From: Botryllus schlosseri
Lineage: Eukaryota
Direction: 5' to 3'
DNA: 64,000 nucleotides
NCBI GenBank assembly: GCA_051294905.1
Contig: CM119371.1
Coordinates: 29,762,001-29,826,000, forward strand
Position numbers and translations under genes: made by a program. The notes under the pieces were generated by a model that had not been told where the DNA came from, made no database searches, and was given only the letters and a program-made list of their open reading frames with translations. Position 1 is the first letter of the stretch; each line of letters begins with the position of its first letter. Below are positions 1 to 40,569 of this stretch, piece by piece.

Positions 1-365
1 CGCTTATAATGCACCCCCTTATCTTCACATGCGTACAGGTCCTGCCAGAGAGTTCGCGAATATTGGCGGACAAGTGACTTAGCTTCTCCGGTGGTCACGT
101 CAGGGACCTGGCGATTGGAGCCAGACAAAGCCGCAGATGTTGCTTCGCGGCCGGCGATCTTGTTGCCATGGATACCTTTGTGACTGGGAATCTTCCAGTT
201 ACCCGCTCAAACAAGGGGAAAAACTTGTTGAAGATATCTGTCGGCGAAGTGAGAGGGTTGGACATCGTGTTCAACACACTAAGCGAGTCTGAAAGAATCA
301 CATATTTGTCTTCTTCGCATCCATCATCGGCAACCCAGGACAATGCCTGAAGAATCGCATTGATA
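1..365 (-). mobile_element. Decayed RNase H fragment of an I-group non-LTR retrotransposon
   Basis: Minus strand reads AILQALSWV...KYVILSDSLSVL and, after a frameshift, WKIPSHKGIHGNKIAGREA, matching the 'SDSxS' and 'W(V/I)PSHxGIxGNExAD' motifs of non-LTR RNase H. Confidence 0.8.
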
Positions 366-2092
366 GATCAAAGATGATATTAAATCAAAGTATTCAAAAT
401 AATATTGAAAAGAGCGGCCATAATTAATGTCTGTAGATCGTTTAATTTGATTGCGTAAAAACTCCGATTTCAGTATTTTGTCAAAAATAATCATGTGCAA
501 TGGTAGCACGTAGTATATGGATATTTTAACGATTTTGATGTATAATGCCTTCTATTACCAAACTAGAGCTAAGCTTCAAACGTTCCTTACCAGCATAAGC
601 TAAATTAGAAACCAATGCCTCCTTCCGCGAGACTTTCAAACTTGCATTTCTTCACGGGACGAACAATTGTTTCTCTATCAGTCGCAGGTGTTCGCCAATA
701 AAATAATTCAATAGAGTATTGTTGGGCTGCCATAAAATGCGTTTCTCTAGTGTGATATTCGCCGAAAATGTGTCCTAATTGAGTATACTCGTACTGGCTA
801 CTTCGACATTATAAGCCAGTTCGATTTCAATCCTTGTTACTTCGATCCAGAGTCAACGCACATCTCTGCCACATTGGCTGATCGGACTCACCATTGTGCG
901 AGCATTGCGGCGAATTAGAAACGGTCGAACACTACTTTATGACCTGCTCACATCTGACTGAGATAAGAAGAAAGCTATGACGCATCTCTCATACAATGAG
1001 CGTCCGTTTCCAGCTATATAACCCTTCAACGGACAACAACACTGTAGCCGACCTACTGGAATTTATACGGGAATCAAATTGTCACATGTAACAACTCGCT
1101 CATCTTGTGTGTTTATGAAATTTCTTGGAATCGTATTGTTCAAAATATCTCAATCGCAGTTGTTCAAAAGCCTCTGACGCGAAAAGCAGCACTAAATGTT
1201 TTATACATATTAATAACATAGTCAACACAAATTGTCCCTACAATTTTGACTAGTCTGCGCACATTCACCAACTTACTGCGCAGACCCTTGGACAACAATG
1301 CGTACCTACTAAAAAGGGTCACCACTTCGGATTTTTTGTGCGCATTTGCGCACGTGTGCAGCTTAGAGGGAACATTGGTCAACACACACTTTGGTGGCAA
1401 GAAAGTTTCAACGCTCTAAGGTATTTGGATGTTGCTGAATCCAAAAATGACATTAGATTTTCCGAGTTGGCTCTTATTTGAGATATTCCATAATTTATAT
1501 TGGTGTCATGTGACAACTAAAGTGAGTACTCGACAATGTACATGTGGTTACCAGTAGAAATAAACTGCAGCTTATCAGAATGATGCTTCTACTGCTACAC
1601 TCCCATCACCTCGTATACTGTGTGATGCTGTACAGTTTGTAGAAAGCTGAGGAAATCACTCATAACGGTATAGATAACAGTACAGCAACATGCTGTATAG
1701 AGGCTGCAGCTAAATAACTTGTGCTGTCCAAAATGGAGTGTTTTCAATGTTTTGTTTCTGAAGTAACGGGGTGCTGCAATAGCAAATAGACATAGTGGAG
1801 CATCTGGTCCAGAATAAGTTATGCATTGGCTTAAGAGACATTTCCAATATGCATGTTACTGATACTTCGTTTCACATTTGGCAGTTACTAAAGTTAACGA
1901 TTTTTCTTTTTTGTTTTAAAATATAAAATATCAATATATATATAAAAATAGAGTCAATTCAAAGAAACGAATGTCATTTTTGGTCTCAGCAGCCCCAAAA
2001 TACCCAGAAACCATTAAAATATATTTTTGCCACTTAAAAAAACAACACAATTTTGTCGGCCATTGTAATAACAATAATAACTTCTATTTAAA

Positions 2093-2619: not shown

Positions 2620-4720
2620 TATCATAAATCAGATTCTAATTAGAGCAAAGAAACATTTCACAAATTGGGGTAGGATTACAATCATAGCTACACAGTTGTT
2701 TTCACAAATTAGATTCTAATTAGAGCAAAAAAACATTTCACAAATTGGGGTGGAATTGGAATAATAGCAACACAGTTGTTATCACAAATTCGATTCTTAT
2801 TAGCGCAAAAAACATTTCCCAAATTGGAGTAGAATTATAATCATAGCGACACAGTTGTTATCACAAATTAGATTCCAATTAGAGCAAAACACATTTCAAA
2901 AATTGGAGCAGAATTAGAATTATGGTAACGCAGTTGTTTGCACAAATGAGATTCTGATTAGAGCAAAAAAAACATTTCCCAAATTGGAGTAGAATTATAA
3001 TCATAGCGACACAGTTGTTATCACAAATTAGATTCCAATTAGAGCAAAACACATTTCAAAAATTGAAGCAGAATTAGAATTATGGTAACACAGTTGTTTT
3101 CACAAATTAGATTCTGATTAGAGCGAAAAAACATTTCCCAAATTGGAGTAGAATTAGAATTATAGCGACACAGTTGTTATCACAAATTATATTCTAATTA
3201 GAGCAAAAAAAATTTCAAAAATTGGAGCAGAATTAGAATTATGGTAACAAAGTTGTTTTCACAAATTAGATTCTGATTAGAGCAAAAAAACATTTCCCAA
3301 ATTGGAATAGAATTAGAATTATAGCAATACAGTTGTTATCACAAATTACATTCTAATTAGAGCAAAAAACATTTCAAAAATTGGAGCAGAATTAGAATTA
3401 TGGTAACACAGTTGTTTTCACAAATTAGATTCTGATTAGAGCAAAAAAACATTTCCCAAATTGGAGTAGAATTAGAATTATAGCGACACAGTTGTTATCA
3501 CAAATTACATTCTAATTAGAGCAAAAAACATTTCAAAAATTGGAGCAGAATTAGAATTATGGTAACACAGTTGTTTTCACAAATTAGATTCTGATTAGAG
3601 CAAAAAAACATTTCCCAAATTGGAGTAGAATTATAATCATAGCGACACAGTTGTTATCACAAATTAGATTCCAATTAGAGCAAAACACATTTCAAAAATT
3701 GAAGCAGAATTAGAATTATGGTAACACAGTTGTTTTCACAAATTAGATTCTGATTAGAGCGAAAAAACATTTCCCAAATTGGAGTAGAATTAGAATTATA
3801 GCGACACAGTTGTTATCACAAATTATATTCTAATTAGAGCAAAAAAAATTTCAAAAATTGGAGCAGAATTAGAATTATGGTAACACAGTTGTTTTCACAA
3901 ATTAGATTCTGATTAGAGCAAAAAAACATTTCCCAAATTGGAATAGAATTAGAATTATAGCAATACAGTTGTTATCACAAATTACATTCTAATTAGAGCA
4001 AAAAAAATTTCAAAAATTGGAGCAGAATTAGAATTATGGTAACACAGTTGTTTTCACAAATTAGATTCTGATTAGAGCAAAAAAACATTTCCCAAATTGG
4101 AGTAGAATTAGAATTATAGCGACACAGTTGTTAACACAAATTTTAGATTCGAATCAGAGCTAAGAACACATTTCAAAAATTGGAACAGAAGTAGAATAAT
4201 TACCTCAGTATATTTTCTGAATTAGACTAGAATCCGAATTATAGGTAGTTTTTATTTCAAATTTGAGTAGAATTAGAAATATAGCTATAGTTGTTTTCTA
4301 AATTAAATTCGATTGAGAGCAAAGAAACACTTCACAAATTAGAGTAGCATCAGAATTTATTGCTACACAGCTTTTTTCAAATTAAAGTAGAATTAGAATT
4401 TTAGCTCGTTTTTTTCGAAATTAGAGTGGTATCAGAATTATAGTAACGTTCAGTTTTTTGTTTCAAATTATAGAGTCGAATTAGAACTATAGCTACACTG
4501 TTTTTCCAGATTAGAGTACGGTTAGAACTATAGGTTCAGTTGTTTTCACAAATTAGATTCGAATGAGCGAGACGAAGCACTTCACAAGTTAAAGTAGATT
4601 TTTATAATTATAACTAGTTTATTTGTTTCAAAATTAGAGGATAATCAGAATTTTAGCGACACATTTTTTTCACTCTAATTAGACAACTAGACTAGTACTA
4701 GAATTGTATGGTTGTCCAAG
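2620..4720. repeat. Tandem satellite of ~79-80 bp monomers arranged as a 159-bp dimer, degenerating at both edges
   Basis: caaatt anchors at 3421, 3501 and 3580. Alternating variants: catttcccaaattggagtag...tagcgacacagttgttat and catttcaaaaattggagcag...tggtaacacagttgtttt. Confidence 0.95.
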
Positions 4721-30380: not shown

Positions 30381-33300
30381 TGAGCAATGTTCCCTCTAAT
30401 TTTTCAAGAGTCTGCGAAAACACGCCAATTCACTGCGCAGGCCCTCGGACAACAGTGCGCAACCACCCTCCAATAAGGTGATAAAACTAACTACTGGGGG
30501 CCTGCCCCCCAGACCCCCCTACGCCTCTGGGCTTCTTCCGGTACTTATCATGTACTTTGGGTGCCCATTTAGTAGTAGCGTCCCTAAACGCGCGAAGCAC
30601 GAAAAAATTTCTATAATTCATGATTGCATCGGCCAATATGATCTGGAATTGCATATATATTGCCATCAATTTTTATCCTCTCCCTGCTCACATAATCAGA
30701 TTTATCGGTAGAGCTGATCCAGTGAGGTGTGTTGGAATAGATAGGCCCTCTAAATAATAATAAAACATCTTCGGGCGTACCCGTTGATATAATGACTTCG
30801 TTACATGATGCTATTTCGTGACCCCCTATCTGCTATGTCAAAAGATATTGAAATCGCCAAAACGTACTAAAAGACGTACACGATTACAAATTGGTATTTC
30901 CTAACTAGAAAATAATGTTCCCTCGATACGGCATTTGTCACTTGTTGCGGGACTCGGATCGCCAGGACAGGAACATTCGGCGCCAGCCATTTAGGCGCCC
31001 ATAGAAATGGACAATTACACATATATTTGAATATATCGAAGTTTTCGGTCAGGACCGGGGCAGTCTTTTTCGCCCAAGGTTTTCTCGCTGCTGATCGTTC
31101 TGGCGCACTTCTTGGATTCGCATGTTACATAGCCTTTAACTTCATATGTCTTGGCGCGTCATGGTGCGGTAATGGCCGACGCCCAACTGCCAACCAACCA
31201 ACCCAATAATCAGATATCTTACAATAATAAAACGCGCGTAGCGCGAAAAAAAATTCCTGAAAAATTTCAAAAAATACCTAATTATTTATGTTCATTCTCG
31301 AAATAATTTTGGGGCTCCTTAGAGCTCGGCCCCTCCAATTGGGGGGTTTGGGGTGCGAAAGTTACGGTCCTGAGTAAATCTTACGCAATGCTCATGCAAC
31401 GCGAAGAAGACTATCATTCGTTAGTTTCTCGCAGATTAACTTCGATCAACCCATTGTTATTTATAACTTTGTTAAACCAGGTTATTTCGCCATTCCCAGA
31501 AAATAATGCGCTATTTAAATGATATCAGTATCGCTCACGTGTACGAGGCCATACTAAAAAAATATCTTACGTCAGGCGCTGGTCATTGTGAACTCTAATT
31601 TCCTCACGGAGCGCAATATTTACCTTTGCTGGGCGCACTGGTACATCGGTTTCAGACTTCAGTGATAACATTATTTGGCCTTGGCAATGTTCCATCTTAA
31701 TTTTCACGAATCTGCGCGCCTGCGTAGTCCATTGGACAACAGTGCACAACAACTATAAAAAAAACAATACATCATTTCTGATTTTTTGTGCGCAACGTGG
31801 ATTTTCTGTGCGCAGATGCCGTTTCAGCACTGCGCATTTGCGCACGCGCGCAGCTTAGAGGGAACATTGCCTTCCATGCCATCAACCTATTCGTTGGGAT
31901 TGCTATCATTCTGGTTGCATTTTATGATATCACAAAATCAAAAAATAAACTTTTCACTGTCATAAAGGGGGCGTGTCTAGAAAGGTTTGAGGAATCACTG
32001 CTCCAGCACCATATCCTTGCAAGAAAACGGTGGCCTACTTTACATTTTGGGTTAATTTCAATTTTTGAAACTTCACCGGTCCTCCAAATATTTTTCGAAA
32101 TTTTACCGGTCCGCAAGGTGAAAGAGGTTGAGAAACACTGATCTAGAACATTGGTTGTACATTGCTGTTCCCGTAACCTATGAGTCAGTCTCAGGGGTTC
32201 CCTGGAGGTCAAAACACGCTCAACTCTTAAATATGATTTTCGATCACTTTATCATTGGTTTCAAGAATTAGGCCCGACAAGTAGTCGAAATAGGACTCTT
32301 GTGGTCGTATGCAAGTTTGTTTTTCAGTCGCAGTAATATACCAGACGAACTTTCGGGGCAAGGCGCACTTATTATTTTCGTAGCAACGCGTCGAAAAGAA
32401 AAGTACATATATTTTTTTTATATTTGCATTGTTAACCGAGCAGAATGTATAGTATGAACTGATATAGTTTCAATATCAAGGGCTGTCAGATTCCATTTTC
32501 TCAGCTTTCGCATAGGAATTTGAGTGAAATACAGGATCTGGGTTTTTCTGGGTTTATTTAGCGTCCACATCTGGGTTTTTCTGGCATCTCTGTAATATAC
32601 CGGCGGAGCCCATGTGTGTACGATTAAAAGCATCGATTTGCACAAAAGCATCATTATTTGTCACCGTTGAGTCCTCGCCATCTCCCGATGCAATTTTACG
32701 TTTGAAAAACTTGAATAAATACGTATATATTGGTGTGAAGTCTGTGTTGTCGAAGTACATGTACCGCCTTGGTGGTTTCAGTAGATCCGTATATTAACTT
32801 AACGCGCGATGTGTCGCTAAAGATTGGTGATAATGATGTGAAATGTCTTTAGATATTGGCATCAGTGGAAAATCATTACCGTCGTGGAAATATATAACAA
32901 TTAAAGTTACTATTCCGTACAGGTAATCGAGCGAAATTGACTCTCAGTAGCTAGTCTTGAATTTTGAATTCATTACCGCACAATTCCCGGACTGTTTAGA
33001 GCGGTTTTAGCATACCACCTTTGAAACTTTCTGGACTAAAAACATGAAATACATATTCTGCTTTTAGAAGTAGTATTTATGTTTCACTAATTCCCAGTAT
33101 CATATTATTTGTGTTATAATTAATATCAGTTCTTTTGTCCGAATAACATACATGTTGAAGTATAAAAGCAAGTGCAGTAATGCATTTAATTTCTGGAAAT
33201 AAAGCTACACAATATGGCATTTTTACGGTTCACCATATTTTTTATTAACGTTTACTAATTGCGCAAAGTGTTTACCCAGTATCCTATACAACTTCTCCGT

Positions 33301-34186
33301 ATTGCTCTTCGACTAAATTACGGGCCTTATAATATGGGGGATGGCGCCATACCATGCTATTTTCCAAAACGTGTTGTTCGAGAAAACAGAGGATTAGTAT
33401 CGCATTTCCTCATCAATACTATCATTTTCATCCCATGGTGTGGACGAATGCTTATGCTATCGAAAATTGGATACCTGCTGGTATGCATCAATATGAATCA
33501 AGCTCGTCACCTATCACATAGCTCAATTTGCACCTTTTTGTAATCCATCCAATCAGGATCGTTTTCACAACTACTTACTTACTTGAGTACTTTTAAAGTC
33601 AGTCAATTCTACTTCAAGTAGTTTTAGGTTGCTTATGAAAGAAGTACTTCTACTTGTACTTGATTAAATTTTTCTTCGCTACTTCTACTTCTACTTGAGT
33701 AGTTTTCTTGACTACTTTGACCACCTCTGACTGTAAGACGGTGTTCCGAGCACCTACTCGGTAAAATGAAGTTTCTTTTTCAGTCACTTCACCAGTGATC
33801 AGAGTTTAGTGAATAAATTTCCTGTTTATATGCTCCGTTTTTCGGATCCGAAAATAAGAGGGGCGAATATTTGTGTTGAGCTTGATACGGGGGCGATGAG
33901 TCAGTAAGGTTGGGAATCACCGTTCTAATTCAAAAACACGCTGCTTGTCACAGAGCGACGTTCCGTCATGCCAACCTCTTACACGCATTTAAATCTGAAT
34001 ATCATTATTATCATTCATTAAATCTGAATATCTCGATAAAGTAGCGGACACCCTGATGTTTGCTAGTGAAACTAATGAGGAAGAACCACCGCCACGTATT
34101 GGCGGTAAAATCGTGCATTTCATCCGTCCTTGCTTCTCACTTGTACACCAAGCATGTATCAACAATACACCGATCATATAGGAGGG

Positions 34187-34678
34187 ATTTGGGACAATGA
34201 TTACATCCGTGACCAAAAAGGAGCCTGCTATAAACAGCTTCAAAATACAATTTTTAACCGCCTTCCCGACACGAATAATCGTCATTATGATCGAATGATA
34301 TTTCGTCTATGGTCAGGTCATTGCCGTCTTAATTCCCATTTATTCAAGATTGGGTGTGCCGACTCCCCCTTGTGTTCAATATGCTGCGTCCCGGACACTG
34401 TTTCAAATTTGCTAATGGAATGTCGTAAATTTGAATTTCATCGCCGCTTTTTGATTGCTCATTGTGTCAATGAAAACGTTGCTTTCTCTGTACAAAATCT
34501 ATTGACCCTCCATTGCCTAACTATACCAGTTATAGAATTTATTATCTCCTGCGTATTATTTCTCTGATCTCTTTGCTTTTCTCCAATTGCCTCATTGAAC
34601 GTATACTGAGCGTGGTGCAAATAATCTTCATCGGTTGGAAAGCGCCACTTGTTTCCATATTAATAATAATAATAATAA
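34187..34678 (+). mobile_element. 5'-truncated I-group LINE 3' end with a (TAA)6 tail
   Basis: ORF end WDNDY..KG..RLWSGHCRLNSHLFKIG..SPLCSICCVPDTVSNLLMEC (C-terminal zinc knuckle), stop at 34567, (TAA)6 at 34661-34678. TSD atataggaggg at 34176-34186 and 39359-39369. Confidence 0.9.
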
Positions 34679-34681
34679 CTA

Positions 34682-35433
34682 TGGTCACTACATTCATCTT
34701 GAATTATGCAAACATTTTAACATCACCACTTCGACAAAAAATTGGTACGATTACAGCCCAGCACCAGTGACAGAAAACGAACAAGTAAAAATTCTGTGGG
34801 ATGTACCAGTTATAACTGACCGCGAAATCAGGAGCAACCGCCCGGATATAATCGTCAAACTAAAAAAGAAAAGAGAATGCTTATTCATTGAACTGGCTGT
34901 CCCAGCTGATCACAACCTACTGCAAAAAGAATCAGAAAAATACTCCAAATACGCAGACCTCAAAATGGAATGTGAGAAAATGTGGCGATGCAAAATAAAC
35001 ATTGTACCGATAGTCATTGGTGCTACAGGGGTCGTGAGCAAAAAACTCATGAGACATATCCAACAAATTCCGGGTAACGTTCGATTCGACATGATCCAAA
35101 AGATCACATTATTGGGCACTGTGCACATTCTTCGGAAGGCCTTGAATGCACCACTGGACTAAAATTACGCTTGTGAATCACAGCATAATTTCTGTAATTT
35201 CGATTCTTCATCTTCAATCATCTCTACCTCTGCTCTGTAACCCTTGCCAATTCTTCATCTGCTGCAATTCTGTAATCTGACTTCTCCGTGTATTGCATAG
35301 GAATAACAATTTGAATGTATTACTGAAATTTTAAAAATTTACTCCAATCTCGCCATTTTCCTTTGGGGGCAGGTTGCTCCCCGGATTATGTGTGTATCTA
35401 CCAGTTTTACTGTGAATAAAGAATATAATAATA
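34682..35433 (+). mobile_element. R4/Dong-clade non-LTR retrotransposon with restriction-like endonuclease (RLE), 5'-truncated copy 1
   Basis: KILWD..TDR..NRPDII..FIELAVP..EKYSKY..VPIVIGATG (PD-(D/E)xK endonuclease), stop at 35162, ~265-nt 3' UTR, aataaa, TAA tail. Confidence 0.93.
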
Positions 35434-35434
35434 G

Positions 35435-36418
35435 TGGACCTGGACCTGGCTATCCAGCTCTGGCCTGAAACCGGCAAGCGAAGGATTCATTTTCGCAGCA
35501 CAAGACCAATCGCTTCCCACAAAATACTATCGCAAAAGAATTCTGAAGCAAAACACGGACGGCAAATGCAGAATGTGCCACAACCAAAATGAAACTGTAG
35601 CACATCTCATGTCCGGCTGTGGTGCACTTGCAGCTACCGAATACACATGGAGACACAATAGGATTGGTCACTACATTCATCTTGAATTATGCAAACATTT
35701 CAACATCACCACTTCGACAAAAAATTGGTACGATTACAGCCCAGCACCAGTGACAGAAAACGAACAAGTAAAAATTCTGTGGGATGTACCAGTTATAACT
35801 GACCGCGAAATCAGGAGCAACCGCCCGGATATAATCGTCAAACTAAAAAAGAAAAGAGAATGCTTATTCATTGAACTGGCTGTCCCAGCTGATCACAACC
35901 TACTGCAAAAAGAATCAGAAAAATACTCCAAATACGCAGACCTCAAAATGGAATGTGAGAAAATGTGGCGATGCAAAATAAACATTGTACCGATAGTCAT
36001 TGGTGCTACAGGGGTCGTGAGCAAAAGACTCATGAGACATATCCAACAAATTCCGGGTAACGTTCGATTCGACATGATCCAAAAGATCACATTATTGGGC
36101 ACTGTGCACATTCTTCGGAAGGCCTTGAATGCACCACTGGACTAAAATTACGCTTGTGAATCACAGCATAATTTCTGTAATTTCGATTCTTCATCTTCAA
36201 TCATCTCTACCTCTGCTCTGTAACCCTTGCCAATTCTTCATCTGCTGCAATTCTGTAATCTGACTTCTCCGTGTATTGCATAGGAATAACAATTTGAATG
36301 TATTACTGAAATTTTAAAAATTTACTCCAATCTCGCCATTTTCCTTTGGGGGCAGGTTGCTCCCCGGATTATGTGTGTATCTACCAGTTTTACTGTGAAT
36401 AAAGAATATAATAATAAT
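35435..36418 (+). mobile_element. R4/Dong-clade copy 2 (5'-truncated)
   Basis: Starts tggacctggacc; encodes EGFIFAAQDQ, CRMC..ETVAHLMSGC (CCHC), RHN and the RLE domain; same 3' end as copy 1. Confidence 0.93.
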
Positions 36419-36843
36419 AGTCATTGGCGCTACAGGGGTCGTAAGCAAAAAACTCATGAGACATATCCGACAGATTCCGGGTAACGTTCGATTCGACATG
36501 ATCCAAAAGATCACGTTATTGGGCACTGTGCATATTCTTCGGAAGGCGTTGAATGCACCACTGGACTAAAATTATACTAGTGAATCACAGCATCATTTCT
36601 GTAATTTCGATTCTTCATTTTCAATCATCTCTACCTCTGCTCTGTAACCCTTGCCAATTCTTCATCTACTGCAATTCTGTAATCTGACTTCTCCATGTAT
36701 TGCATAGGAATAACAATTTGACTGCATTACTGAAATTTTAAAAATTTACTCTAATCTCGCCATTTTCCTTTGGGTGCAGGTTGCTCCCCGGATTATGTGT
36801 GTATTGACCAGTTTCTTACTGTGAATAAAGAATATAATAATAA
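36417..36843 (+). mobile_element. R4/Dong-clade copy 3 (shortest, most diverged)
   Basis: Starts atagtcattgg, overlapping the previous tail; same 3' end; many private substitutions. Confidence 0.92.
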
Positions 36844-37512
36844 CAGAAAACGAACAAGTAAAAATTCTGTGGGATGTACCAGTTATAACTGACCGCGAAA
36901 TCAGAAGCAACCGCCCGGATATAATCGTCAAACTAAAAAAGAAAAGAGAATGCTTATTCATTGAACTGGCTGTCCCAGCTGATCACAACCTACTGCAGAA
37001 AGAATCAAAAAAACACTCCAAATACGCAGACCTCAAAATGGAATGTGAGAAAATGTGGCGATGCAAAATAAACATTGTACCGATAGTCATTGGCGCTACA
37101 GGGGTCGTGAGCAAAAAACTCATGAGACATATCCAACAAATTCCGGGTAACGTTCGATTCGACATGATCCAAAAGATCACATTATTGGGCACTGTGCACA
37201 TTCTTCGGAAGGCCTTGAATGCACCACTGGACTAAAATTACGCCTGTGAATCACAGCATAATTTCGGTAATTTCGATTCTTCATCTTCAATCATCTCTAC
37301 CTCTGCTCTGTAACCCTTGCCAATTCTTCATCTGCTGCAATTCTGTAATCTGACTTCTCCATGTATTGCATAGGAATATCAATTTGAATGTATTACTGAA
37401 ATTTTAAAAATTCACTCCAATCTCGCCATTTTCCTTTGGGGGCAGGTTGCTCCCCGGATTATGTGTGTATTTACCAGTTTTACTGTGAATAAAGAATATA
37501 AATAATAATAAT
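36843..37512 (+). mobile_element. R4/Dong-clade copy 4
   Basis: Starts acagaaaacgaac; RLE domain, 3' UTR and TAA tail. Confidence 0.93.
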
Positions 37513-38042
37513 AGCTGATCACAACCCACTGCAAAAAGAATCAGAAAAACACTCCAAATACGCAGACCTCAAAATGGAATGTGAGAAAATGTGGCGATGC
37601 AAAATAAACATTGTACCGATAGTCATTGGTGCTACAGGGGTCGTGAGCAAAAAACTCATGAGGCATATCCATCAAATTCCGGGTAACGTTCGATTCGACA
37701 TGATCCAGAAGATCACATTATTGGGTACTGTGCACATTCTTCGGAAGGCCTTGATTGCACCACTGGACTAAAATTACACTTGTGAATCACAGCATAATTT
37801 CTGTAATTTCGATTCTTCATCTTCAATCATCTCTACCTCTGCTCTGTAACCCTTGCCAATTCTTCATCTGCTGCAATTCTGTAATCTGACTTCTCCGTGT
37901 ATTGCATAGGAATAACAATTTGAATGTATTACTGAAATTTTAAAAATTTACTTCAATCTCGCCATTTTCCTTTGGGGGCAGGTTGCTCCCCGGATTATGT
38001 GTGTATCTACCAGTTTTACTGTGAATAAAGAGTATAATAATA
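37513..38042 (+). mobile_element. R4/Dong-clade copy 5
   Basis: Starts agctgatcac; RLE C-terminus, 3' UTR and TAA tail. Confidence 0.93.
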
Positions 38043-38070
38043 GAAATCAGAAGAATAAGAATAAGAATAA

Positions 38071-39360
38071 CAGAAATCATCGGCTTGTCACAGTACATCA
38101 ACAACAGCGATAACATTTACTGCAAACTCATTGCACAGGAAGACAAACAGCGCAAAACAAAATCTCTGAGCTATCGTCACGACAAGTACGTCAGAGAAGT
38201 CAACATGGAAACAGCTAACCTGTTCACTGCAGAAAACACTGTTGCTATGCCCACAACAATAGCAAAAGCAGCACGAGTCCAATACAAAAATGCAACGCTC
38301 AAAATGAGAGAAACAATATGGGAGTCGATGCCTCTTCATGGACAGCACAAGAAGTTAACTTCACAGCCCCATGTAGACGAGCTTTCATGGACCTGGCTAT
38401 CCAGCTCTGGCCTGAAACCGGCAAGCGAAGGATTCATTTTCGCAGCACAAGACCAATCGCTTCCTACAAAATACTATCGCAAAAGAATTCTGAAGCAAAA
38501 CACGGACGGCAAATGCAGAATGTGCCACAACCAAAATGAAACTGTAACACATCTGATGTCCGGCTGTGGTGCACTTGCAGCTACCGAATACACATGGAGA
38601 CACAATAGGATTGGTCACTACATTCATCTTGAATATGCAAACATTTTAACATCACCACTTCGACAAAAAATTGGTACGACTACAGCCCAGCACCAGTGAC
38701 AGAAAACGAGCAAGTAAAAATTCTGTGGGATGTACCAGTTATAACTGACCGCGAAATCAGGAGCAACCGCCCGGATATAATCGTCAAACTAAAAAAGAAA
38801 AGAGAATGCTTATTCATTGAACTGGCTGTCCCAGCTGATCACAACCTACTGCAAAAAGAATCAGAAAAACACTCCAAATACGCAGACCTCAAAATGGAAT
38901 GTGAAGAAATGTGGCGATGCAAAATAAACATTGTACCGATAGTCATTGGCGCTACAGGGGTCGTGAGCAAAAAACTCATGAGACATATCCAACAAATTCC
39001 GGGTAACGCTCGATTCGACATGATCCAAAAGATCACATTATTGGGCACTGTGCACATTCTTCGGAAGGCCTTGAATGCACCACTGGACTAAAATTACACT
39101 TGTGAATCACAGCATGATTTCTGTAATTTCGATTCTTCATCTTCAATCATCTCTACCTCTGCTCTGTAACCCTTGCCAATTCTTCATCTGCTGCAATTCT
39201 GTAAACTTCTCCATGTATTGCATAGGAATACCGATTTGAATGTATTACTGAAATTTTAAAAATTTACTCCATTCTCGCCATTTTCCTTTGGGGGCAGGTT
39301 GCTCCCCGGATTATGTGTGTATTTACCAGTTTTACTGTGAATAAAGAATATAATAATAAT
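38071..39360 (+). mobile_element. R4/Dong-clade copy 6 (longest, ~1.3 kb)
   Basis: WESMPLHGQ..SWTWL..EGFIFAAQDQ..CCHC..RHN; a 1-bp deletion at ~38634 shifts the frame; RLE domain; TAA tail abuts the TSD. Confidence 0.93.
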
Positions 39361-40379
39361 ATAGGAGGGTTTCTATTCCAACAAGTCGCAACATCTTTAT
39401 TCGCGAACAATTGTGTTGACAGAAATACGGTGATTGTCCGTTTAAATATAGTTAAGAGCCGATAAAACAATAGCGTTAACGACAATGCAAGTTGGCATAT
39501 TTCAATGCTCTGTTTGCTGTAGTCGTAGTCTGCCATTAGCCCGCGTGTGTGGTGTGGGGAATACATGATATTTAACTTTAAACTTGGTCGTAGGAGTTCG
39601 GGTTGTTATTATTAATCGCCAGTCGCGGTTGTTTTCCCAAGTCGAGGAATATATATTCGATGGGAAGTGACACAGCAGTGCGACGATAGGTATTTGAATT
39701 ATATATCTGTGTAACATGCAAATTACAGATATCGATTCCGCATTGGCGTTCTCACTTCTGTGAATAGCTACTACTTGGTCCATTTTTCCATAAAACTCTG
39801 AATTCAGTGTCCACTTTGTGCCTTCTCGAAGTAGAGAGAGTGAAAGCACAACACCATAGTCGGTTGGTTCTAATGTGGCCTTTGAACATTGAACATGCTC
39901 GGCATTTTCTGTCTTACGAACATTTCACAAATTAGATTCGATTTATAATTAGAGCATATAAGCATTTCGCAAATTATAGATTAGAATTAGAATTAGAGAT
40001 TAATTTCACAAATTATATTACAGTGAGATTACTTGCATTTCGTTCTAATTTAGTGAAATCAGACAACTAGAATTATCTAAATGTCCAAGTCCGAGTTCAA
40101 CACTCCGCGCATAAGAATCCATAACACATCATCGCCACAACCTATACCTGAGCTGAAAGGGTACCAAAACACAATTTGTATAAGGGTCACTTCATCAGAT
40201 ATCCCTATACCTGAAAGGGTACCTTCACCAGAGATTCCATAAGAAACCGTGTTAGTTCACCAGCGATGGGGGGTTTAAAAAGGTGGGGTCCCCTACACGA
40301 GTTTTCATGTTAGCTAACCAGAGACCCCTTAAGACACAACGCCAACTTGCCACCGATCTACTATACTACTAACGCTTAC

Positions 40380-40569
40380 ACGTCTGAAGGCACTCCACAC
40401 GTACAGCCGCATCTGCTGATGATCGAGAACTGCTCAAGTGACCACATTCTCAGTTTTAGAAGACGCCGTAGATCGTAGCATCGGCAATCAATGTTTATCT
40501 CACGTCGGACTTGTTTGACGGGATGAAGCCACGCCACCGAGCACAGGGAATATTTGACTAAAGTATTTC
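40380..40569 (-). pseudogene. Exon-like, probably decayed LDLa-related segment inside a hAT element
   Basis: Acceptor ttttctgcag, donor gtaagc, 190 nt, phase 1 to 2 like the 91-nt LDLa exons; Cys-rich (..KQVRREINIDCRCYDL..RCGCTCG) with distorted LDLa spacing. Confidence 0.4.

Follow-up and report, generated by a model that had tools for sequence, protein, structure and literature searches.

The window, a stretch of 64,000 nucleotides of the Botryllus schlosseri contig CM119371.1, contains six head-to-tail, same-strand copies of one LINE family at positions 34682-39362 (Table 1). When the longest copy was compared with the window by blastn, exactly six same-strand matches were found, and none elsewhere in the window. 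All six copies share the 3' end ...GTGAATAAAGAATA(TAA)n, in which the terminus CTGTGAATAAAGA(A/G)TA leads into a TAA repeat of 8-15 nt, and each has a 5' truncation of its own. The first-pass annotation had described this arrangement, and its lengths match those measured here.

Table 1. Features of the array and its landing site (element coordinates refer to a natural full-length copy of 4309 nt, locus L033).
Feature	Position	Strand	Element coordinates	Length	Remarks
Target-site duplication ATATAGGAGGG of pad LINE, left	34176..34186	+			Identical 11-mer at 39359-39369
Pad LINE fragment	34187..34660	+			5'-truncated 3' fragment with ORF end and 3' UTR; I-like, unrelated family
Pad tail (TAA)6, landing tract	34661..34678	+			Read in the sequence
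Copy 1	34682..35433	+	3552-4303	752 bp	Tail TAATAATA
Copy 2	35441..36419	+	3328-4306	979 bp	
Copy 3	36417..36843	+	3880-4304	427 bp	
Copy 4	36843..37510	+	3640-4306	668 bp	Interrupted tail TAAATAATAATAATA
Copy 5	37513..38042	+	3774-4303	530 bp	
Filler between copies 5 and 6	38043..38068	+		26 nt	GAAATCAG + (AAGAAT)3
Copy 6	38069..39362	+	3009-4307	~1295 bp	
Target-site duplication ATATAGGAGGG of pad LINE, right	39359..39369	+			Outer right junction of the block

The stack is bounded on the left by the (TAA)6 tail of an older LINE, referred to here as the pad LINE, and on the right by the 11-bp target-site duplication of that same element. The two ATATAGGAGGG copies bracket the block exactly, and an 11-nt match between two fixed junctions would arise by chance with a probability of about 2e-7. 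Copy 1 is preceded by TTCCATAT(TAA)6 of the pad LINE and 3 filler bases, while a 7-nt micro-duplication, GTGGACC (35434-35440), lies directly before copy 2. The proposal that each copy directly follows the TAA tail of the previous one stands except for copy 6, which is separated from copy 5 by filler. In this filler, GAAATCAG repeats the start of copy 6 and (AAGAAT)3 resembles the last bases of the element; it probably originated from reverse transcriptase slippage or an abortive start. Copy 6 has a frameshift near 38640, and its tail merges into the right target-site duplication. No constant period was found across the block by Tandem Repeats Finder, the sole row being a 424-bp two-copy repeat at 35993-36843. 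The structure was read from the assembly. The short contigs of public runs cannot span the repeats; one contig of run X1 spans the junction of the left duplication and the old LINE (34035-34218) with 0 differences.

The ORF of the pad LINE fragment ends with a stop codon at 34565-34567, and its product is 87% identical in amino acids to P0122, a longer member of the pad family. P0122 has a CCHC motif and an RNase H C-terminus (PF00075, E 9.8e-5) whose score of 23 bits lies below the cutoff of 25.8 because the domain is cut. The pad fragment shows no similarity to the stacked family. The fragment has 41 matches in the genome, the nearest only 95% identical, and the pad is therefore probably the oldest part of the locus. 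Its tail is natural, as proposed earlier: in 20/20 other members the 3' end of the pad family is followed by 4-10 ATA/TAA units, and in the 13 better-preserved copies the perfect runs measure 12-31 nt. A second, independent copy of the pad family also carries a fragment of the stacked family right behind its tail (L049/L050).

The stacked family is about 4.3 kb long, with a single 1229-aa ORF that is intact in 5 of the 6 long copies examined and encodes a reverse transcriptase (RVT_1, E 3e-30), a CCHC knuckle and an R2-type restriction-like endonuclease (RLE), in this order. A profile of 26 homologues, searched against solved structures, matched R2 proteins with an E of 1e-56 and L1 with 4e-26. 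The closest solved relatives are thus those of R2, the 28S rDNA-specific RLE LINE (9nl3, 9dou, 9nl2 and 8gh6). The match runs through the reverse transcriptase, the linker and the CCHC knuckle, and a second stretch falls on the R2 endonuclease (rPD...D...EK..KY). In the alignment C589/C592/H601/C606, D676 and K707/K710/Y711 are invariant; D691 is present in at least 90% of the sequences, the stacked element's own ORF having E at this position. These data support the earlier assignment as an RLE-type LINE protein. Unlike R2, the family has a simple repeat as its target, and neither a zinc finger nor a Myb domain gave a significant match, no clear N-terminal Myb being found. No database protein exceeds about 50% identity with the product of this ORF.

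The family is best described, provisionally, as Dong/R4-like, from its architecture and TAA habit. It resembles Dong of Bombyx mori, DongAg, DongBg and the ostracod Dong1/2 in having one ORF, with the reverse transcriptase before the restriction-like endonuclease, in about 4-5 kb. It also shares with Dong/R4-clade elements the insertion into (TAA)n, which three papers describe for the Dong elements of insects, molluscs and cnidarians (PMC7998251, PMC3812793, PMC3636483). Both the stacked element and the 5' end of B. mori Dong, as quoted in a primer (PMC3774820), begin with GCTCC. Dong and R4 carry an HDV-like 5' ribozyme (PMC3774820), whereas no match to such a ribozyme was detected in the stacked element. 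TAA targeting by Dong is already in print, so the family here adds a new member to a known kind and offers a tidy stacking record. In the literature apart from two primary Dong papers, no description was found of ordered head-to-tail stacks, or of the tails of other LINEs as a usual target.

The array is not an isolated case. In the genome, 731 3' ends match a 26-mer of the family, against 0 for the control. Among 100 listed 3' ends of these 731, a same-strand neighbour lies within 4.4 kb of 30, where 0.65% would be expected, and an opposite-strand neighbour lies within this distance of 2; the spacings vary between 269 and 4058 bp and show no constant period. Further same-strand fragments were present in 13/29 fetched loci. 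The 5' flanks of 15 long copies were also inspected, and 6-7 of them end in TAA repeats, 5 lying behind the tails of I-like LINEs that belong to several families; three such LINE flanks matched the pad C-terminus by tblastn (E 5e-49, 5e-41 and 3e-24). Stacking behind TAA tails is common in the B. schlosseri genome, and this pattern is probably explained by the targeting habit already known for Dong-type elements. These flanks and neighbours support, in line with the first-pass annotation, TAA tracts as preferred landing sites genome-wide. The preference is not strict: two full-length copies, L033 and L043, lie between short duplications at sites other than TAA and, unlike Dong, matched full-length 5' ends were preceded by a TAA run in 0/56 cases, with a biased pattern that excluded G-rich flanks.

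The relative ages of the six copies were estimated from their nearest relatives outside the array. With 40 of about 1300 candidates scored per query, and with the values of copies 2, 3 and 4 converted from bit scores, the differences were 0/743 for copy 1, ~3/968 for copy 2, ~3/416 for copy 3, ~10/653 for copy 4 (1133 vs 1178 bits for self), 7/521-530 for copy 5 and 22/1281-1292 for copy 6. Copy 1 is identical over 743 bp to two copies elsewhere among the candidates scored. Copies 1 and 2 show 0 and 3 differences, respectively, from the majority of 30 genomic copies, and copy 4 has 12/668 differences to its nearest relative within the pool of fetched loci. Copy 3 belongs to a different subfamily: its identity is 94% with copies 1 and 2 but 99% with several copies elsewhere. 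Divergence thus climbs from 0% in the 5' copy to 1.3-1.7% in the 3' copies. Homogeneity of the six distances was rejected (chi-square p = 5e-4), and distance rank follows array position (Kendall tau 0.87, permutation p = 0.008). An editing signature was considered for the substitutions and rejected, their spectrum being mixed. By these distances copy 1 is the youngest, and the newest copies adjoin the long tail of the old LINE, not the newest copy's own tail.

Since the copies differ in age, several separate insertions are the likely origin of the array, rather than duplication or a single concatemeric event. Both the TPRT mechanism and template jumping are known from work on R2. One study describes template jumping by R2-type enzymes in vitro and head-to-tail transgene repeats in cells (PMC11371274). 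A single target-primed reverse transcription with template jumps, possibly including the old LINE fragment, could accordingly have laid down a concatemer within one duplication, and both the enclosure of the whole block in one duplication and the filler and micro-duplications at the junctions would fit such an event. It is nonetheless improbable. Copies 1 and 2 (0/743 and 3/968) differ in age from copies 4 to 6 (10/653, 7/521 and 22/1281; Fisher p = 1.6e-6), copy 3 comes from another subfamily, and a concatemer as recent as copy 1 should have near-identical sources for copies 4 to 6 and for the pad, whose nearest relative is 95% identical. Distances are statistically equal within copies 4-6 and within copies 1-2, so each of these blocks could reflect a single insertion during which the enzyme jumped between templates, and the array would require at least three separate insertion events, not six. 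A tandem duplication, in which one or two original insertions were multiplied by unequal crossover or replication slippage, is hardly credible. Copies 1 and 2 are nearly identical (~2 differences in the overlapping 744 bp), and locus L039 does carry a fixed-junction tandem duplication of 3.87-kb units; here, by contrast, six distinct 5' ends each go with a complete 3' end and tail, a different subfamily lies in mid-array, a constant period is lacking and 0/68 variant sites are common to array members only. Independent retrotransposition, as first proposed, is thus retained. Wrong chaining of reads from dispersed copies is very improbable, although many dispersed copies are 99.7-100% identical to copies 1 and 2 and the short contigs of public runs leave the repeats unspanned: every junction is unique, four copies have private substitutions, the block fits exactly inside the matching 11-bp duplication and like arrays occur at many loci on 41-Mb-scale contigs.

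The first-pass annotation had also proposed a self-renewing site, in which each copy enters the fresh TAA tail of the previous one and the array grows at its 3' side. A TAA tail is indeed present at the end of every copy, and tails of the stacked family do serve as targets elsewhere, for example in the L006 array, where the tail of an older copy is followed by younger ones (0.93%, then 0.13% and 0.27%). For the present array this is unlikely, as the oldest copy should then adjoin the pad and the youngest should lie farthest downstream, the reverse of the observed order; newcomers would have entered beside the old LINE's (TAA)6, upstream of earlier copies. The family's own tails, (TAA)2-5, are also short, with a median of 10 nt against 18 nt for the pad tract and mostly 12-31 nt in the pad family. 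The tail of the old LINE thus appears to have persisted as a dock without being renewed. In other arrays the younger copy was upstream in 16/21 adjacent pairs from loci chosen for young central copies, and in 7/9 pairs free of this selection bias; some arrays (L006, L004) have the opposite age order. The youngest-near-pad polarity is consequently drawn mainly from the single array at 34682-39362. Taken together, the observation of the first-pass annotation was confirmed and its interpretation partly supported.

The reading we prefer, to which we assign a probability of roughly 0.75, is that the tail of an older I-like LINE was repeatedly used as a dock by the Dong/R4-like family, with the youngest copies nearest the pad. 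The I-like LINE would have inserted first, leaving a 5'-truncated 3' fragment that ended in (TAA)6 and was flanked by an 11-bp target-site duplication, and the Dong/R4-like family would later have landed on this TAA tract on three or more separate occasions. If insertion proceeds as in R2, the endonuclease would nick the bottom strand at the 3' edge of the (TAA)n tract or close to it, and the (UAA)n end of the element RNA would pair with the nicked strand and prime reverse transcription. Reverse transcription would stop early, giving a new 5' truncation every time, and the 5' end would be rejoined to the tract through a few bases of microhomology, filler or a micro-duplication. Entry at the 3' edge would leave the long tract intact upstream, so that later copies would land between the pad and the earlier ones and the array would read from youngest to oldest away from the pad. 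We infer that the longest tract wins as target, the pad's 18 nt remaining preferable to the ~10 nt of the newcomers' tails.

Same-orientation, head-to-tail arrays of variably 5'-truncated copies, produced by repeated TPRT, are also known for HeT-A/TART/TAHRE and SART/TRAS. The telomere analogy drawn earlier applies to this form and not to the site, since telomeric LINE arrays occupy chromosome ends and serve telomere maintenance, whereas the present array is interstitial, at 29.8 Mb of a contig of 41.8 Mb, and shows no sign of function. In mammalian L1/Alu, older poly(A) tails resemble the preferred site of the endonuclease and attract later insertions; unlike the stacked family, these elements use an APE endonuclease on an A-rich target with weak specificity. 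Zepp copies reportedly enter poly(A) tails, an observation attributed to Higashiyama in 1997. Another source describes clusters of nested or stacked 5'-truncated Zepp LINEs in Chlorella/Coccomyxa, formed by repeated insertion into earlier copies (PMC3446292), and the stacked 5'-truncated copies in clusters found here are similar. Zepp is L1-type, with a poly(A) tail and one cluster per chromosome, whereas the B. schlosseri family is RLE-type and forms many small arrays at TAA tracts.

The window carries six same-strand, head-to-tail copies of one repeat and none elsewhere: the longest copy, compared with the whole window, and the full-length reference copy L033 with its protein found the same six only. 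Every copy has the 3' terminus CTGTGAATAAAGA(A/G)TA followed by 8-15 nt of TAA repeat, and each starts at a different internal position of the element. At the 5' junctions, copies 3, 4 and 5 overlap the preceding tail by 1-3 nt, copy 1 has 3 nt of filler and copy 2 shows a 7-nt micro-duplication. Copy 6, which carries a frameshift, is preceded by a 26-nt filler in which its own first bases are repeated, together with (AAGAAT)3. Upstream of copy 1 lies the pad, a fragment of an unrelated I-like LINE with a (TAA)6 tail. The 11-mer ATATAGGAGGG is found directly 5' of the pad fragment and again directly 3' of the tail of copy 6. No common repeat period across the array was detected by Tandem Repeats Finder. 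The description and coordinates given by the first-pass annotation (34176..39369) were right, as judged from the window sequence read over 33000-40500 and from the copy comparison. Part of window 33700-35660 is contained in 20 sequencing runs, and a contig of the public run X1 bridges the left outer junction of the array, confirming that junction only; the stretch compared extends from the left flank through the pad and copy 1 into the beginning of copy 2. On the same stretch, runs X5, X8 and X15 gave family-level short contigs only.

Features of the array and its surroundings in the window. Element positions refer to L033 (4309 nt). Differences are counted to the nearest relative outside the array, meaning the closest among the best 40 of about 1300 candidates per genome search; counts for copies 2-4 are converted bit-score deficits, with +2/-3 scoring inferred from self-matches.
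Feature	Window position	Element position	Differences/length compared
I-like LINE C-terminus (-)	3-191		
I-like LINE C-terminus (+)	804-1067		
11-mer, left	34176-34186		
Region with I-like 3'-UTR hairpin	34600-34660		
Copy 1	34682-35433	3552-4303	0/743 (two identical copies elsewhere)
Own-first-base duplication, copy 2	35434-35447		
Copy 2	35441-36419	3328-4306	~3/968
Copy 3	36417-36843	3880-4304	~3/416
Copy 4	36843-37510	3640-4306	~10/653
Copy 5	37513-38042	3774-4303	7/521 (7/530 in a second comparison)
Own-first-base duplication, copy 6	38043-38076		
Copy 6	38069-39362	3009-4307	22/1281 (22/1292 in a second comparison)
11-mer, right	39359-39369		

In the genome holding the window (495.5 Mb, 219 contigs), at least 731 places match the last 26 nt of the stacked family with at most 2 mismatches, and the reversed control matches none. 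Fifteen copies extended upstream measured 1.3-4.3 kb, and three copies share the full-length start GCTCCTCATCG. The 4305-4309-nt element contains a single 1229-aa ORF, intact in five of the six longest copies examined (L033, L038, L042, L043 and L044), with a LINE-type reverse transcriptase at residues 517-782 (PF00078, E 3.3e-30). The best solved relatives of the ORF are R2 proteins (E 6.6e-30 with the single sequence, 1.2e-56 with the profile); L1 ORF2 reached only E 4e-26 against the family profile. The R2 profile match runs through the CCHC knuckle, and a second stretch on the R2 endonuclease is weak when taken alone (i-E 0.067). In an alignment of 26 sequences, the ORF and 25 homologues, C-x2-C-x8-H-x4-C, PD and K..KY do not vary, and at the acidic residue in the centre (D691) at least 90% of the aligned sequences have D, the family's own ORF having E. 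No Pfam match to Exo_endo_phos (APE) was obtained in the ORF, and its C-terminal 280 aa alone had no match among solved chains. The closest of 1781 database homologues are 49-51% identical, with names absent or generic. A perfect TAA run of 5-19 nt terminates 30 of 32 3' ends from loci L002-L030 and is missing from the other two (median 10 nt over the 32); all six window copies likewise end in TAA repeats. On these sequence features the stacked family is classed as a LINE of the R2 group that bears a restriction-like endonuclease (RLE) and a TAA tail. The features of that group are all present, namely a LINE reverse transcriptase, a C-terminal CCHC plus PD-(D/E)XK RLE without APE, and a single ORF.

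The stacked family has the architecture described for Dong/R4 and a similar TAA habit. The R4 clade is defined by an RT tree in which its members group with R4, Dong and Rex6 and not with HERO, NeSL, R2 or CRE, and the family is a putative member. For insects, molluscs and cnidarians, insertion of Dong/R4 elements into (TAA)n has been reported (PMC7998251, PMC3812793, PMC3636483). Alternatively, the family may belong to HERO, which also includes microsatellite-specific families (PMC4640811). Two further traits have been described for R4/Dong: a 5'-terminal ribozyme of HDV-like type that cleaves itself (PMC3774820), and a Myb/SANT-like domain at the N-terminus, without zinc fingers, in the R4 clade and Dong (PMC7998251). 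No HDV-type ribozyme appeared among the Rfam matches to E 10 in the first 500 nt (L033 5300-5800), which were three chance-level rows from unrelated families, and no GRGGRGY complement to nt 1-7 was seen by eye in the first 200 nt of the element; this negative is weak, as Rfam models may miss diverged HDV-like folds. Residues 1-289 gave no Pfam match up to E 5. In an Atlas feature search with residues 45-135 Myb clusters ranked first (0.85), a lead only, and the single-sequence model of the N-terminus was helical at low confidence (pLDDT 61.5), with nothing below E 0.98 in Foldseek against the PDB.

The pad fragment is the 3'-terminal 474 nt of another LINE and leads into (TAA)6; it has 87% protein identity to a longer member of its family. 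At its C-terminus this member has a CCHC motif and the last third of an RNase H (E 9.8e-5, 23 bits), which scores below the Pfam cutoff because the domain is cut. The pad is thus I-like, in agreement with the first-pass annotation, and a candidate I-group LINE; the pad-family copies obtained, L078 among them, are truncated. I-group LINEs carry an RNase H after the RT and a C-terminal CCHC, and the I factor of Drosophila also has a TAA-repeat tail. Since ATA/TAA repeats follow the same 3' end in 20 of 20 other pad-family members, the (TAA)6 is the pad LINE's own tail; pad-family tails are mostly 12-31 nt, compared with the median of 10 nt in the stacked family (32 tails). Among 41 scored genomic matches the nearest relative of the pad fragment is only 95% identical, and the fragment is therefore old. 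Several I-like LINE families share a 3'-UTR hairpin, GTGGYGC ... GCRCCAC, just 5' of the TAA tail, seen in the pad and in the upstream flanks of L032, L035, L037, L041 and L042, with apparent compensatory changes between families when read by eye (GTGGTGC/GCACCAC versus GTGGCGC/GCGCCAC). The 3' hairpin of the stacked family is different, so that the two groups have only the tail repeat in common. Two further I-like C-termini in the window are 36-38% identical to the pad-family protein, and outside the stack the window has no ORF of 220 aa or more.

The differing 5' ends had been taken as an argument against tandem duplication, and this was borne out. Window copies differ from the majority of 30 genomic copies at 68 sites, and not one of these variants is private to the array; moreover, copy 3 belongs to a different subfamily, being 94% identical to its neighbours and 99% identical to copies on other contigs. 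Together with the differing 5' ends, these results exclude duplication. A satellite was likewise rejected on account of the six different junctions, the missing common period and the genome-wide spacings, which range from 269 to 4058 bp between neighbours among the 3' ends listed. Copy 3 was also considered as an old copy, since it lies 4.7% from the majority of 30; its 99% relatives in the other subfamily speak against this, and because of its subfamily status the nearest-relative distance was used instead of the distance from the majority. By this measure the divergence rates are heterogeneous (chi-square p = 5e-4; copies 1 and 2 versus 4-6, p = 1.6e-6), and the substitutions show a mixed spectrum and not one editing type. 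A single recent concatemeric event is an unlikely origin of the whole array: it would require near-identical sources for the pad fragment as well as for copies 4-6, and no such source appeared among the best 40 of about 1300 candidates per genome search. It follows that the pad LINE was succeeded by at least three separate insertion episodes. The copies of block 4-6, or those of block 1-2, may instead have arisen together by template jumping, which is known for R2 enzymes (PMC11371274).

Along the array, divergence rises monotonically within noise, from 0% next to the pad to 1.3-1.7% at the 3' end (Kendall tau 0.87 between array position and divergence, permutation p 0.008). The first-pass annotation had proposed that each new copy enters the new tail of the previous one, which predicts the opposite of the order seen in the window array. 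The order fits a series of insertions at the 3' border of the pad tract, which would leave the 18-nt tract whole upstream of each newcomer. Of 21 adjacent pairs in other arrays, at loci picked for young central copies, 16 have the younger member upstream; pairs free of this selection bias give 7 of 9, and the opposite order is seen in some arrays. The rule that the youngest copy lies next to the pad is a supported hypothesis.

Stacking is common in this family. A same-strand neighbour lies within 4.4 kb of 30 of the 100 exact 3' ends listed, against 0.65% expected, and an opposite-strand neighbour in 2 cases; extra same-strand fragments occur at 13 of the 29 loci examined, some of which overlap or duplicate one another. 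In flank and array samples that are small and not random, TAA repeats stand at the 5' junction of 6-7 of 15 long copies, and for 5 of the 15 an I-like LINE supplies this repeat as its tail. In three of these five flanks the upstream coding sequence shows 38-40% identity with the C-terminus of the pad (E 5e-49 to 3e-24), and the other two share the 3' motif only. Another pad-family copy, of which a segmental duplication holds two instances, has a stacked-family fragment directly after it. The genome has about 700 (TAA)5 starts, counted in one phase only, with the reversed repeat as control and good to an order of magnitude; long TAA tracts are therefore scarce, and many of those examined are tails of I-like LINEs. 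TAA targeting is not absolute. At L033 and L043, both of them full-length, the short duplications lie at non-TAA sites, and no TAA run was found 5' of full-length copies at any of 56 matched 5' ends, with a pattern (H, not G, upstream) biased against G-containing flanks.

Taken together, these data raise the possibility that the niche of one RLE LINE depends on another LINE class. The enzyme would cut the longest tract at its 3' edge, the pad tail would serve as an unspent, reusable dock, stacking would be strictly youngest-next-to-dock, the array would be an interstitial, self-dating record of the stacked family's activity, and the two families would stand in a host-guest relation. We give this full reading roughly one chance in three. 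Should the order rule be general, every stack would document bursts and subfamily turnover on a small, datable scale and would also tell where the enzyme cuts a simple repeat. Such a cut position is relevant to the use of R2-type enzymes for site-directed insertion, the target here being very short and simple. Moreover, TAA-tailed I-like LINEs create landing sites for another LINE class, a dependence rarely documented.

Stacks of 5'-truncated LINEs formed by repeated insertion are also known at telomeres. Telomeric retrotransposon arrays stand at chromosome ends, whereas the window array is interstitial: the window lies at 29.76-29.83 Mb of the 41.84-Mb contig C1 and not at a chromosome end. 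Zepp clusters are stacks of 5'-truncated LINEs from repeated insertion as well (PMC3446292). Among the papers listed by full-text literature searches, which covered work other than the primary Dong papers, none describes ordered head-to-tail Dong stacks or other LINEs' tails as the usual Dong target. The stacked family is a new family of an already known kind and behaves as expected; the TAA-targeting habit of Dong is itself published, and knowledge of it is unchanged. Age-ordered stacking on the tail of another LINE is a partly new detail. With about 30% of the listed copies in head-to-tail stacks, the family offers a worked example of a repeat-targeting LINE shaping a genome, and such stacks could pass for tandem duplications or satellites, or collapse in assemblies.

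Loci L003 and L004 (G000:C10:1237708-1249230) form a segmental duplication of about 7.2 kb with the same two stacked copies. Upstream, one half has a young copy of 607+ bp and the other a 160-bp fragment behind a pad-family LINE, so that the two are possibly a natural before/after pair for stack growth. At L039 (G000:C9:10486200-10496100), three long copies stand in tandem with an identical internal junction, from element nt ~4240 to nt 375, and a period of about 3.87 kb; unlike the window stack, this is a true tandem duplication.

The 5' junctions of truncated copies often show a short direct duplication of the copy's own first bases, of 6-8 nt in copies 2 and 6 and of 24 nt in L049 and L050 (G000:C10:1275797-1275947 and 1241478-1241628), which may be a trace of the way the cDNA end becomes joined. 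Inside its 5' UTR the full-length element also carries an (ATA/TAA)8 run (L033 5628-5653, element nt ~237-262). L034, L042 and L044 begin at or just past this run, and L042 is joined there to the TAA tail of an I-like LINE; these starts and this fusion suggest 5' joining by repeat microhomology.

The same upstream 12 nt, CAAGCTTCATTT, precede 47 of 56 matches to the first 21 nt of the element, a share inflated by pattern bias. Examples are L066-L079, L043 and L038 (e.g. G000:C1:7323452-7325050), and seven aligned flanks share about 400-450 bp that code for half of a THAP domain, the first (PF05485, E 3e-6, above cutoff). In L079 the insert consists of the first ~245 nt of the element 5' UTR, to the internal TAA run, fused to the tail, after which the rest of the THAP exon follows; in L043 and L038 this position is occupied by a full-length copy. 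The pattern suggests that the element inserted once, long ago, into a repeat bearing THAP and that this repeat was amplified afterwards; most repeat copies would have lost the element body by recombination between the internal TAA run and the tail.

Contigs of 679-1256 nt from X5, X8 and X15, on window 34682-35660, differ from the stacked family at 0-1 positions. The runs with such contigs are labelled as two other organisms, and words of the family also occur in metagenome runs, those from seawater among them. Possible causes are a shared origin that is very recent, mislabelling, transfer, or environmental DNA from the same species.
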